This document shows, piece after piece, positions 542 to 45,335 of a stretch of DNA of 46,405 nt. Position 1 is the first letter of the stretch. The number at the start of each line of letters is the position of its first letter. The notes below the pieces were generated by a model that saw only the letters and a list, made by a program, of their open reading frames with translations, did not search any database and was not told the DNA's origin. The stretch comes from a virus (Duplodnaviria; Heunggongvirae; Uroviricota; Caudoviricetes): IMG/VR virus record IMGVR_UViG_2687453454_000004; one strand, 5' to 3'. A program made the translations under genes and the position numbers.

Positions 542-1579
542 TTAACGCTTATCCGCCACCAGTTTGAGCGCGTGTTCCAGCACATTAATGTCTGCACCCG
601 CTTTATGGGCATTTTCACTTAAATAACGCCGCCACTGCCGCGCGCCAGGAATACCCTGGAACAAGCCCAACATATGCCGGGTAATATGGCCGAGATACGT
701 CCCCTGGCTGAGTTCACGCTCAATGTACGGATACATGGCGCGCACTACCGCCACCGGATCGGCATCGGTATCCGAGGAACCAAAGATCTCCCGGTCTACC
801 GCCGCCAGAATACCCGGATTCTGATACGCCTCGCGCCCGACCATCACGCCATCCATATGTTGCAGGTGTGCTTTGGCCTCTTCCAGCGACTTGATACCAC
901 CGTTAATCGACATTGTCAGATGCGGAAAGTCACGCTTCAGTTGATACACACGCGGATAATCGAGCGGCGGGATTTCACGGTTTTCTTTCGGGCTTAACCC
1001 CGAAAGCCAGGCTTTACGTGCGTGGATGATGAACATCTCACACTCGCCTTTGCCGGAAACGGTATTGATGAAATCGCAGAGAAATTCATAGCTGTCCTGG
1101 TCGTCGATGCCAATACGCGTTTTCACCGTCACCGGAATCGACACCACATCGCGCATCGCTTTCACGCAGTCGGCAACCAGCTGCGCATTACCCATCAGAC
1201 ACGCACCAAACATGCCGTTCTGCACCCGGTCAGACGGGCAGCCGACATTCAGGTTGATCTCATCATATCCGCGCGCTTCTGCCAGCTTTGCACACTGCGC
1301 CAGCGCCGCCGGATCGCTACCGCCCAGTTGCAACGCTACCGGATGTTCTTCTTCACTGTACGCCAGATAATCACCTTTACCGTGAATAATCGCCCCTGTG
1401 GTCACCATTTCGGTATACAGCAACGTATTGCGGGAAAGCAGACGCAAGAAATAGCGGCAATGTCTGTCCGTCCAGTCGAGCATAGGAGCAATACTAAACC
1501 GAGAACTCCAGTAAGCGCCAGTTTTTTCAGGCATCACGCTGGTTTGATTAGTTTTCTGTGTTTCAGGATTATCGTGCAT
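542..1579 (-). CDS. dusA: tRNA-dihydrouridine synthase A; 5' end supplied by the prophage
   Basis: 345-aa ORF with TIM-barrel Dus signature (NLNVGCP...GGI); start codon at 1577-1579; first ~35 codons are about 80% identical to a displaced copy at 45232-45335. Confidence 0.9.
1476..1579. other. attL region (dusA 5' end, phage-derived replacement segment containing the crossover)
   Basis: Homologous to 45232-45335; longest identical block cagttttttcaggcat (1519-1534 vs 45275-45290); exact crossover point not resolvable by eye. Confidence 0.5.
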
Positions 1580-1612
1580 TTTTGAACATTTCAGGCTATT
1601 TTTCTCGCGTTA

Positions 1613-1647
1613 GGTTCCCGCACAGGTTCCCACGCTTTATGGGAACC
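1613..1647. repeat. Candidate integrase arm-type sites (AGGTTCCC x2 direct plus GGGAACC inverted)
   Basis: ggttccc at 1613-1619 and 1625-1631, gggaacc at 1641-1647, between the dusA start and int; related motifs at 45169-45188 on the other prophage end. Confidence 0.4.
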
Positions 1648-1667
1648 CGAAATAACGAGGTCGTGTA

Positions 1668-2765
1668 ATGGCGTACTATAACATAGAGAAACGACTAAAA
1701 TCCGATGGCACACCACGCTATCGCTGTAATGTGATTATCAAAGAAAAAGGTGTTATCACTTACAGGGAAAGCAAAACATTCCCTAAACATGCTCATGCCA
1801 AAACATGGGGCGCACAGAAAGTGATGGAATTAGATCTATATGGCATTCCATCATCAAATGCTGTTGACGGACTTACAGTCCGTGACTTACTACACAAATA
1901 TTTAAATGACCCAAATGCCGGAGGTAAAGCAGGCCGTACTAAAAGATATGTGCTGGAACTGCTTATGGATAGTGACATCTCCGCGATCAAACTATCTGAA
2001 CTGACAGAAAATGACGTAATTGAACATTGCAGGCTAAGAAACAACGCTGGTGCAGGCCCAGCAACAGTCAGCCACGATGTTAGTTATCTTGGCAGTGTTC
2101 TGGATGCGGCAAAACCTGTATACGGAATCAATTACACATCAAACCCGGCGAAAAGCGCTCGTCCATATCTACTTAAACTCGGTTTGATTGGTAAATCAAA
2201 CCGTCGTAATCGTAGACCAGCATCTGATGAACTGAACATGCTCATTGAAGGCCTTCAACAACGATCTACTCATAAATGCTCAAAAATTCCGTTCGTTGAT
2301 ATCCTCAAATTTTCTGTGTGGTCCTGTATGCGAATCGGAGAAGTATGCCGGTTACGATGGGAAGATCTCGACCAGGAACAAAAATCTATACTAGTAAGAG
2401 ACAGGAAAGATCCACGTAAAAAGGAAGGCAACCATATGAAAGTTGCCTTGCTTGGGGAAGCCTGGGATATCGTCCAGCGACAACCCAAAAAATCAGAATT
2501 CATTTTTCCATATAACAGCACTTCTGTTACCGCAGGATTTCAGAGGGTAAGAAGCAAATTAGGTATTAAAGATCTGAGATACCATGATTTGCGTAGAGAA
2601 GGGGCAAGTCGCTTATTTGAGGCTGGTTTTAGTATTGAGGAAGTCGCTCAGGTTACAGGGCATCGTTCATTAAACGTGCTATGGCAGGTATATACCGAAC
2701 TGTATCCGAAATCTTTACATAATCGTTTTGAAGAACTCCAAAGGAGCAGAAATAAGACCTCTTGA
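1668..2765 (+). CDS. int: Tyrosine recombinase / phage integrase (dusA-targeting type)
   Basis: 365 aa; ATG with GAGG RBS; C-terminal catalytic motifs (MRIGEVCRLRWEDL, HDLRREGASRL, VTGHRSLNVLWQVYT); adjacent to and divergent from the dusA 5' end. Confidence 0.9.
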   Translation: MAYYNIEKRLKSDGTPRYRCNVIIKEKGVITYRESKTFPKHAHAKTWGAQKVMELDLYGIPSSNAVDGLTVRDLLHKYLNDPNAGGKAGRTKRYVLELLMDSDISAIKLSELTENDVIEHCRLRNNAGAGPATVSHDVSYLGSVLDAAKPVYGINYTSNPAKSARPYLLKLGLIGKSNRRNRRPASDELNMLIEGLQQRSTHKCSKIPFVDILKFSVWSCMRIGEVCRLRWEDLDQEQKSILVRDRKDPRKKEGNHMKVALLGEAWDIVQRQPKKSEFIFPYNSTSVTAGFQRVRSKLGIKDLRYHDLRREGASRLFEAGFSIEEVAQVTGHRSLNVLWQVYTELYPKSLHNRFEELQRSRNKTS

Positions 2766-2793
2766 CACTGTTTATCCATACAGTTAAAAATAA

Positions 2794-2813
2794 TACTGTA
2801 TACAAATACAGTG
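2794..2813 (+). promoter_or_regulatory. LexA (SOS) box upstream of the dinI-like gene
   Basis: tACTGTatacaaatACAGtg fits CTGT-N8-ACAG consensus exactly; 13 bp upstream of the ATG at 2826. Confidence 0.65.
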
Positions 2814-2825
2814 TAGGGGACTTTT

Positions 2826-3074
2826 ATGCGTATTGAAATCTGCATAGCCAAAGAAAAAATGACTAAAATGCCAACCGGTGCTGTGGATGCGTTAAAGGAA
2901 GAATTAACCCGACGCATCAGTAAACGTTATGACGATGTAGAAGTGATCGTAAAAGCCACCAGCAACGATGGCCTTTCTGTTACGCGCACCGCTGATAAAG
3001 ATTCAGCTAAAACTTTTGTTCAGGAGACTCTGAAAGATACCTGGGAGTCTGCTGACGAGTGGTTTGTTCATTAA
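2826..3074 (+). CDS. DinI-family DNA damage-inducible protein (prophage copy)
   Basis: 82 aa, MRIEICIAK...[11 protein letters not shown] resembles DinI/MsgA family; AGGGGA RBS; preceded by LexA box. Confidence 0.75.
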
Positions 3075-43756: not shown

Positions 43757-43775
43757 CAAAAAGCACCAGCTATGA

Positions 43776-43949
43776 TCATGCTGCTTTGCGACGACGAAGC
43801 TTACCCTGCTGCTCTTTACCAGAGACAGTAGCGTGAGTGAACGCATTAGGAGCAGCCTTCATCAGAACTTCAACAGCAGCCCCCATACCTGCGAATGCTT
43901 TCATTGTGTCGAACTTAACCTGTGGCTTGGTTGCTTTTTGATCTTCCAT
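43776..43949 (-). CDS. Small hypothetical protein (57 aa)
   Basis: ATG at 43949 with GGAG RBS; MEDQKATKPQVKFDTMKAF...; below the ORF-track length cutoff. Confidence 0.3.
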   Translation of the reverse strand: MEDQKATKPQVKFDTMKAFAGMGAAVEVLMKAAPNAFTHATVSGKEQQGKLRRRKAA

Positions 43950-43988
43950 AGAAAACTCCAGAAGCTATACCGAAACAATTCCTGTTGT

Positions 43989-44408
43989 TTACTCATCATC
44001 AATAGATGATACGCAATATTTATTTTTAAATTTAAGGTTCTTTGGCGTAACTTCATCAGATATATCAAAACCGTCCAGAATTCTATTGAATGTAGCTTCT
44101 GGCATATCATCATGAACGGAAATCTCACCCGATCGCTGCTTTCTAACCATGTTATCCACTCGCCAAATTATAGCTTCAGCGTAAACAACATAACTTGGAT
44201 GCTTGATAAAGCGATGATCACCAGAATTCAAGACGCAAGACGGATCGTGGGGGACACCATCCTTGATACTAGAAATATTAACAACTAAAACACAATAACA
44301 ATCGTTAACGGGGTAATAAACAGGATCATTACAAATCACATGAAGATGATTGCATGGCCCAGTTGGGGCAAGCACAGTTCCTTTCCTGTATGGCTGATAA
44401 TCCGTCAT
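43989..44408 (-). CDS. Putative toxin partner of the Panacea-like protein
   Basis: 139 aa; ATGA start/stop overlap with the upstream gene; no recognised fold. Confidence 0.45.
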   Translation of the reverse strand: MTDYQPYRKGTVLAPTGPCNHLHVICNDPVYYPVNDCYCVLVVNISSIKDGVPHDPSCVLNSGDHRFIKHPSYVVYAEAIIWRVDNMVRKQRSGEISVHDDMPEATFNRILDGFDISDEVTPKNLKFKNKYCVSSIDDE

Positions 44409-44977
44409 GATAATTGCAAAGAAAATTCCTTAAGTTTCTGAGATTCTTCCATTTTGCCAATTATACGATTAGCCTCATCCTCGCTTTTACCCTCACTGAT
44501 CAGCATTTCTTTCAGGTCTATAGGCTTACGAGAATTGCCAGGATTGTGCCACTCTGGACAAACGCTTTCTAAATGCGTCATGTTTGCGAGATCAAATCGG
44601 TTCATATGCCCATACAGAGAATAGATTTCATCTAAAATCCGGATATCTGCACGGCTCAACTCATCAAAGACCTCGTCTGCATCCATTTCCCTCGGATCTG
44701 AACGCAACAACACATCATGCCCGTTCGTCTCTATCAGGTTGTACCAGTAGTCACCAATACCTTCAGCCTTACCACGAATCAAGTTCAGCGTATTCGACAT
44801 GACTGGACCAAATTTCATAGAGTAAAGGCTATCTTCGCCGATCATCCTGCCATGCTTCAAAATCGACTTGCGGTTAGACAGATAGAGCAGCTTCATCAAT
44901 TTCAGATATGCCATGCGCCCACCTCGCTTAAGAAGTAGGTATGCAGCCATTTGAGCTACTTTTTCTTCGCAAAACAT
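44405..44977 (-). CDS. Panacea-domain (DUF4065 / GepA-like) putative antitoxin
   Basis: 190 aa; N-terminal AAYLLLK...MAYLKLMKLLYLSNRKSI...DSLYSMKFGPV resembles the DUF4065 family from memory. Confidence 0.55.
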   Translation of the reverse strand: MFCEEKVAQMAAYLLLKRGGRMAYLKLMKLLYLSNRKSILKHGRMIGEDSLYSMKFGPVMSNTLNLIRGKAEGIGDYWYNLIETNGHDVLLRSDPREMDADEVFDELSRADIRILDEIYSLYGHMNRFDLANMTHLESVCPEWHNPGNSRKPIDLKEMLISEGKSEDEANRIIGKMEESQKLKEFSLQLS

Positions 44978-45168
44978 ATAAGAAACCTCAAAGATAGTGA
45001 ACTTTGTAATTATTCTCGATACTTCATGGGTTGCTTCATCACCAACATGAGCTTCTTATGGTGTGCCCACTTAGGCCTAAGCAACTAGTTACCTTGTTTG
45101 TCAAGTTTATAGCTGGCTTTAATCATGGTCAATTGAAGTGATGAGCAAATGATGCTTTCTAAGAATAA

Positions 45169-45188
45169 CAGGTTCCCAATAGGCTCCC
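45169..45188. repeat. Candidate integrase arm-type sites on the attR side
   Basis: caggttccc and aggctccc, related to the ggttccc repeats at 1613-1647. Confidence 0.35.
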
Positions 45189-45212
45189 ACAAAGTGTATA
45201 ACTAGTTGTTTT

Positions 45213-45335
45213 TCAAAAACGGTACATCCTATCGAGCATTGGTGCAACGCTAAACCGACCACTCCAGTGAACGTCAGTTTTTTCAGGCATTGCGCTGGTT
45301 TGGTTGATTTTTTGCATTTCAGAATTACCGTGCAT
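45213..45335 (-). pseudogene. Displaced original 5' fragment of dusA (attR)
   Basis: Encodes MHGNSEMQKINQTSAMPEKTDVHWSGRFSVAPMLD then diverges and stops; about 80% DNA identity to 1476-1579. Confidence 0.7.

Follow-up and report, generated by a model that had tools for sequence, protein, structure and literature searches.

Why does a single stretch of viral DNA carry the 5' end of the same host gene twice, once near each of its ends? The question is raised by the IMG/VR record IMGVR_UViG_2687453454_000004 (Caudoviricetes), whose 46,405 nucleotides were analysed as a whole and are called the window in the following. The gene in question is dusA, and the flanks of the window correspond to the pspG-dusA / yjbM (DUF2713) neighbourhood of Escherichia coli; indeed, the whole window is near-identical to the locus of E. 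coli YJ3 (NZ_AP023226; 59 mismatches). The answer at which we arrive is that a lambdoid, mEp460-like prophage has almost certainly inserted at the 5' end of E. coli dusA, by the action of a dusA-specific tyrosine integrase (Int). The model is based on the anatomy of the sequence, on reconstructions of the empty host site (attB) and of the phage site (attP), and on the homologies shown below, and we found nothing that contradicts it; the activity of this prophage copy, including its excision, is presumed.

The longest direct-repeat family in the window pairs 1466-1582 with 45222-45338. The two copies of 117 nt lie 43,756 bp apart and agree without gaps at 94 positions, a match expected by chance about 1e-26 times among all pairs of positions in the window; both read on the minus strand as the 5' end of dusA. 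The diverged duplicate at the far end, reported in an earlier note on this DNA, is thus confirmed. The same note considered that the duplicate might lie inside a longer host duplication. This is not the case: because the 20-nt blocks on each side of the repeat are identical at only 3-7 of 20 positions (chance level), the repeat is sharply bounded and no part of a longer duplication.

The left copy belongs to an intact dusA open reading frame (ORF) of 345 residues (542-1579, minus strand), which is recognizable by its stop-free translation and its Dus domain (Pfam: PF01207, E=8e-105). According to the three-way comparison described below this gene is a hybrid: the core and codons 36-345 stem from the host, codons 1-32 from the phage. 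The phage-borne replacement (start codon and 32 codons; 1484-1579, minus strand) differs from the native 5' end at 19 of 96 nt, corresponding to 80% nucleotide identity. In the right copy, 35 DusA-like residues are followed by RMYRF and a stop codon. Its segment 45240-45335 (minus strand; again start codon and 32 codons) is the displaced native 5' end of the host gene, 100% identical to that of K-12. Translation of this fragment continues into phage DNA and ends after 40 codons, which makes it a pseudogene remnant, and PGAP annotates it as a partial tRNA-dihydrouridine synthase pseudogene in both YJ3 and E. coli CFS3273 (45231-45335 in YJ3 RefSeq). It is followed by the orphaned native upstream region of dusA (dusA-yjbM intergenic; 45336-45697, minus strand), which is collinear with the K-12 locus and cut off from the gene body by the prophage. 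The two N-termini do not encode the same first ~34 residues, as had been claimed: 25 of 35 residues agree, with 10 replacements and 6 synonymous changes.

To locate the crossover, a K-12-type genome with uninterrupted dusA (attB) was compared with the left copy (attL) and the right copy (attR). Left of 1476, attB equals attL wherever the two copies differ, and right of 1483 it equals attR throughout; the 8-bp core TCGAGCAT in between (attL: 1476-1483; attR: 45232-45239) is common to all three. Because the match of attB switches from attL to attR across these positions, strand exchange is placed inside the core, that is, in the host codons Met33-Leu34-Asp35. On the coding strand the core reads ATGCTCGA (ATG CTC GA), i.e. 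Met33-Leu34 and the first two bases of Asp35. These codons sit in the APMLDWTD motif of DusA, which is invariant in the 31 loci with readout (32 examined), while the ~25 residues preceding RFS(V/I)AP are highly variable across the same loci. When window positions 1184-1483 are joined to 45240-45539, the resulting 600 nt are 100.0% identical to K-12 MG1655, and this reconstructed attB occurs in 3,637 out of 5,426 complete E. coli genomes (at least 80% coverage). Some genomes match the query no further than position 308 of 600, where the core ends, which points to other elements inserted at the same crossover point. The core is also found within the attB quoted for Citrobacter rodentium (PMC6328086) and in the attP of Salinivibrio phage SMHB1; counted by hand, the E. 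coli attB TCCAGTCGAGCATTGGTGC agrees with the published C. rodentium attB at 17 of 19 positions. As ARAGORN detects no tRNA or tmRNA gene in the window, an att site of the tRNA type is excluded.

The lysogen-free relative therefore behaves as the earlier note had anticipated, its dusA 5' end being identical to 45232-45338 and not to 1476-1582. The note was also right in placing both prophage ends inside the window, but not in placing them at 1476 and 45335: the junctions are the two cores, and 45240-45335 is host DNA. With this the boundaries are fixed to the base. The prophage body extends from 1484 to 45231 and, together with one core, measures 43,756 bp between the two copies of TCGAGCAT.

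If the ends are joined, the predicted attP consists of 44978-45239 followed by 1484-1667. This arrangement is contiguous and nearly identical, from the repeats of the P arm to the start of int, in the complete-genome record of phage mEp460 (JQ182728), whose attP has the attL version across the whole of 1484-1582. A second comparison is offered by phage 1720a-02: at the start of its record, GTCGAGCAT is followed by the phage-borne dusA 5' segment seen here, and at the end the P arm is likewise that of the prophage and borders on dusA sequence of C. rodentium. This phage integrates 100 bp into dusA, supplies a phage-borne dusA 5' ORF, and has a 7-base core within TCCAGTCGAGCATGGGAGC, which contains TCGAGCAT; upon induction its attP is regenerated and accounts for 0.44% of junction reads in vivo (PMC6328086). 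A third record, the 'circular' one of Lys8385Vzw (MT225100), contains the core twice in tandem at attP (~2270-2290), which is most simply explained as an artefact of circularising prophage ends that each hold a core; it is not used as evidence here.

The integrase itself is encoded at 1668-2765 (plus strand; 365 residues; Pfam Phage_integrase: PF00589, E=8e-21, residues 187-346), its ATG at 1668 being divergent from the dusA ATG at 1579. From conserved motifs, R222 (RIGE), H306/R309 (HDLRR), H332 (GHRS at 331) and Y342 (QVYTE) are the candidate catalytic residues. The protein is identical to the 1720a-02 integrase at 361 of 364 positions, 98-99.5% identical to those of mEp460 (98%) and Lys8385Vzw, and 52-56% identical to integrases of a Klebsiella phage, Vibrio prophage elements and Salinivibrio phage SMHB1. 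Together with the K-12 attB reconstruction, this near-identity (99%) to the 1720a-02 enzyme supports the proposal that a dusA-targeting integrase restores the gene with a phage-borne 5' segment. No lambda-type xis is present beside int, where the next gene encodes a DinI-like protein. At the opposite end of the prophage, and hence across attP from int in the circular form, lies a gene of the PrtN family (43447-43728, plus strand; Pfam PyocinActivator: PF11112, E=3e-23), whose product is a candidate recombination directionality factor (RDF) of the RdfN type. In a dusA-specific element, RdfN is the only factor besides Int that is needed for excision (PMC8409611), and a PrtN homolog has been found in 64% of dusA islands (PMC4482086).

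Taken together, the following course of events is very probable. The phage attP comprises the 8-bp core, arms with short repeats and, towards int, a diverged imitation of the 5' end of dusA, ~100 bp long, with a start codon, an N-terminal tail that is variable, and RFSIAP, the first beta-strand. Strand exchange by Int in the core, i.e. in host codons 33-35 of the invariant PMLD motif, splits dusA. At attL the host gene body is joined to phage upstream DNA and, with the reading frame preserved, to the 5' end brought by the phage, and at attR the native 5' end and promoter are stranded. Excision would need Int and the PrtN/RdfN-type factor, and would restore the native gene exactly.

The prophage body, judged from its sequence and from the YJ3 RefSeq annotation, is that of a mosaic lambdoid siphovirus. 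Its closest phages are Ayreon, mEp460 and PhiR40/47/55 (including PhiR40_1), with 95-99% identity over 54-80% of each prophage half, and its modules for head, tail, lysis, Q, replication and immunity are collinear with those of sequenced phages. The modules are int, the dinI-like gene, a candidate DRT10 cargo, tail, head, terminase, lysis, methylase, Q-type antiterminator, replication, repressor, early-left, rdfN and a Panacea pair. The annotated structural genes are terminase, portal, a ClpP-capsid fusion, the tail genes through J, Lom and the side tail fibre; further annotated are lysis genes, a DNA methylase, the Q-type antiterminator, RusA, replication genes and a LexA-family repressor. 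On account of this repressor, SOS induction would be expected. The prophage contains no stx genes.

Some observations weigh against the proposed model. A scan of 1400-1800, including the 88-bp spacer between dusA and int, yielded no consensus sigma-70 site, and expression of the hybrid dusA is something that we infer. Furthermore, a gene for tail-fibre assembly is reduced to a remnant without N-terminus (5309-5443, minus strand), which is one sign of decay, and E. coli CFS3273 has a decayed sibling of the same prophage, and both cases demonstrate that decay occurs in prophages of this kind. In one alternative reading the architecture is as described but the copy is fixed, i.e. defective in excision or virion formation, with the hybrid dusA simply being the allele of the strain. 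We regard this as rather unlikely. The truncated gene, the decayed sibling and the split of the side-tail-fibre gene in the YJ3 annotation are in its favour, as are the very low excision frequencies of other dusA islands (PMC4482086). On the other hand, int and the rdfN-like gene are intact, as are the two cores and the two arms, the set of head, tail, terminase, lysis and replication genes is complete and includes the LexA-type repressor, and lambda can do without its side tail fibres.

Another alternative concerns the point of crossover. The longest perfect match between the two copies is not the core but the 16-bp block CAGTTTTTTCAGGCAT (1519-1534 / 45275-45290), and recombination there would leave only ~45 nt of the dusA 5' end as phage-derived. 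The comparison with attB makes this very improbable: K-12 sides with attR, not with attL, at 8 out of 8 differing positions in 1484-1518, and with attL at all of them left of 1476. Moreover, the attL version found in mEp460 extends over both sides of the block, and the published core of the 99%-identical Int lies in the TCCAGTCGAGCATGGGAGC segment of attB. The block was rejected as the crossover on the basis of the attB comparison. That the two copies have nothing to do with the prophage ends and arose in the host, by segmental duplication or gene conversion of the 5' end of dusA, has practically no probability left and was rejected from the empty-site attB comparison, the phage attP and the K-12-identical reconstructed attB: the bare existence of a diverged direct repeat speaks for it and nothing more, whereas the similarity ends abruptly on both sides, genomes with an empty site have one copy, equal to the right one, and genome records of phages show the left copy directly joined to phage DNA.

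A further question is how the hybrid gene is expressed. All DNA upstream of its ATG is phage-derived. The nearest upstream genes (int, dinI-like, SLATT and reverse transcriptase) lie on the opposite strand, so read-through into dusA is unlikely; from both facts it follows that a substitute promoter would be supplied by the phage, in the 88-bp spacer (1580-1667) or within int; the int promoter would be located in the spacer as well. A lacZ fusion in a related Vibrio island shows such an element-supplied promoter, weaker than the native one (PMC8409611). At the other junction, a promoter scan of 45150-45750 gives one weak site (minus strand, 45536-45508), which is not above the expectation from shuffled sequences. 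The DusA of this strain thus has a phage-encoded N-terminus, with 10 of 35 residues changed, and relies on phage-supplied upstream DNA. This is relevant to studies in which the D20 modification of tRNA is examined in natural isolates of E. coli, since ~14% of the complete genomes have the junction: this attL is present in 741 out of 5,426, and 167 of the 5,426 also have this attR arm.

The spacer, entirely phage-derived, also forms the P' arm of attP. It contains candidate arm-type Int sites at 1612-1647 (plus strand), identified by motif matches, whose function would be the binding of Int: AGGTTCCCG (1612-1620), AGGTTCCCA (1624-1632) and an inverted GGGAACC (1641-1647). Matching candidates in the P arm are AGGTTCCCA (45170-45178) and AGGCTCCCA (45181-45189), again on the plus strand and 43-62 bp from the core. 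The motif AGGYTCCCR has four matches in the 46-kb window (1612, 1624, 45170, 45181), all of them in the two attP arms, and the repeats of the P arm are kept in mEp460, Lys8385Vzw and 1720a-02. Two direct copies ~12 nt apart plus one inverted copy recur, mostly at the same positions, in 25 out of 29 homologous int-dusA spacers (3.5% in shuffles). The positions of the array are stable across more than 15 genera, and its sequence shifts with the Int lineage (GGTTCCC, CAGCACC, GTACACC, AGGACAC, GGTATCC); the motifs of the P and P' arms co-vary in Klebsiella phage Kp4885-1 and Salinivibrio phage SMHB1, each of which has the motif of its lineage in both arms. The covariation with the Int lineage argues for protein-binding sites, and the most economical reading is that the repeats are arm-type sites for the N-terminal domain of Int. 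Arm sites of dusA-specific elements are not mentioned in PMC4482086 or PMC8409611, and a search of the window at the Rfam gathering threshold places no family at the att sites. The array offers a testable map of the attP arms for the dusA-specific integrase family. It is conceivable, but in our judgement quite unlikely, that the candidate sites overlap the substitute dusA promoter and the int promoter, in which case the expression level of host DusA would be governed by Int occupancy and hence by the state of the prophage.

A survey of Int relatives, restricted to one genome per species, found 52 loci. At 34 of them dusA is divergent and lies ~64-200 bp (mostly ~88 bp) upstream of int. These loci come from Kosakonia, Pluralibacter, Phytobacter, Izhakiella, Mixta, Rosenbergiella, Xenorhabdus, Morganella, Proteus, Serratia, Plesiomonas, Shewanella, Idiomarina, Vibrio, Aeromonas, Algicola and others, in total well over a dozen genera. 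The remaining 18 lack dusA upstream; some are short contigs, others have different target genes. At eight loci without dusA, from Xenorhabdus, Serratia and Pseudomonas (Int ~43-70% identical), by-eye translations place int divergent at the 5' end of an srmB-like DEAD-box helicase gene, a pgl-like 6-phosphogluconolactonase gene, pyrD or a gene for a uhpB-like sensor kinase. This suggests that the strategy of 5' replacement is also employed at targets other than dusA.

The element fits the family of dusA-associated integrases (DAI), in which the new 5' end of dusA comes from the element and the native gene is regained on excision (Farrugia et al. 2015, PMC4482086). The assignment relies on the near-identity of Int to that of 1720a-02, whose authors matched their att junctions to the Farrugia motif. 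Further DAI features found here are the tyrosine-recombinase domain, int divergent beside the dusA 5' end, imperfect repeats with a short core, an in-frame replacement 5' end, the native 5' end at the far junction and, as a candidate, a PrtN/RdfN-type gene opposite int. DAI islands and prophages described so far share the divergent int, semiconserved direct repeats, the element-supplied 5' end and the PrtN homolog; about half of them are prophages, with a mean length of 42.6 kb, and Escherichia is well represented (PMC4482086). Compared by description with these elements, the present one shows no difference in kind.

Among individual elements, the closest parallel is the Stx2dact phage 1720a-02 (KF030445), which uses dusA of C. 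rodentium and E. coli (Balasubramanian et al. 2019, PMC6328086). It has the same P' arm, dusA 5' segment and P arm, a core inside TCCAGTCGAGCAT, and the same gene order (int, dinI-like, tail ... Q ... repressor ... attR). The prophage differs from it in the lack of stx and in a candidate DRT10 cargo and a Panacea pair in place of the 1720a-02 accessory genes, and the E. coli attB departs at 2 of the 19 positions quoted for the host attB. mEp460 and Ayreon resemble the prophage in sequence as stated above, and mEp460 also in its integrase and its contiguous attP, but neither phage has the SLATT and reverse transcriptase cargo between the dinI-like and the tail-fibre genes, and mEp460 has another small ORF beside attP in place of the Panacea pair. 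IMEVchUSA3 and other dusA-specific SGI1-like islands (Durand et al. 2021, PMC8409611) share the target and the RDF of the PrtN/RdfN type. In IMEVchUSA3 the new N-terminus has the same length and is 61% identical to the native one, compared with 71% here. Islands of this type are plasmid-mobilisable and AcaCD-regulated, whereas the element described here is a self-sufficient lambdoid prophage of the SOS type. The phenomenon, the integrase and even the locus have thus already been described or annotated, and our analysis makes no conceptual addition to Farrugia et al. 2015, Balasubramanian et al. 2019 and Durand et al. 2021.

The cargo between the dinI-like and the tail-fibre genes (3075-5196, plus strand) is set apart by its low GC content (33-37%). 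It consists of a 222-nt intergenic region, a gene for a SLATT_5 protein (3297-3848) and a gene for a UG17 reverse transcriptase (RT; 3826-5196); the PADLOC matches are RT_UG17 (E=1e-158) and RTasSLATT (E=1.5e-56), and the 207 nt upstream of SLATT have a folding z-score of -3.8. According to preprints of 2025-26, DRT10 has a non-coding RNA upstream of SLATT and makes protein-primed tandem-repeat cDNA. The layout of the cargo matches this tripartite description, so that the prophage would possess, as a moron near int, a predicted DRT10 defence system (UG17 RT and SLATT) that is absent from mEp460 and Ayreon.

Directly inside attR lies a pair of genes (43989-44977, minus strand) that looks like a toxin-antitoxin pair of the PanA type. 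One encodes a protein with a Panacea (SocA-like) antitoxin domain (44405-44977, minus strand; Pfam: PF13274, E=2e-18) and overlaps by 4 nt with the other, an ORF of 139 residues (43989-44408) without family match. The pair has no PADLOC match; the Panacea module is common to Lys8385Vzw and replaced in mEp460. In the side-tail-fibre region, the window has a single ORF of 1,255 residues (5492-9259, minus strand) with a 42-nt-periodic repeat at 8286-8647, while the near-identical YJ3 locus is annotated as an S74-peptidase/pyocin-knob protein and an N-terminal pseudogene.

The Rfam search of the window at the gathering threshold returned C4 antisense RNA (38395-38482, 82.8 bits) and isrK (38507-38583, 59 bits) only, both on the minus strand and above the gathering score. 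They are located inside the ash/antirepressor region and represent an immunity element of the P1/P7 type within a lambdoid prophage. Finally, identical hairpin-forming sequences of 24 nt, AAAAAACCCGCTCAGTGGCGGGTT, occur at 32461-32484 and 33138-33161. They are 677 bp apart and bracket a hypothetical ORF of 141 residues (32562-32987) downstream of the Q-type antiterminator gene, a region that in Stx phages such as 1720a-02 is occupied by stx; a third copy, 83% identical, follows the PrtN-like gene at 43731-43754.

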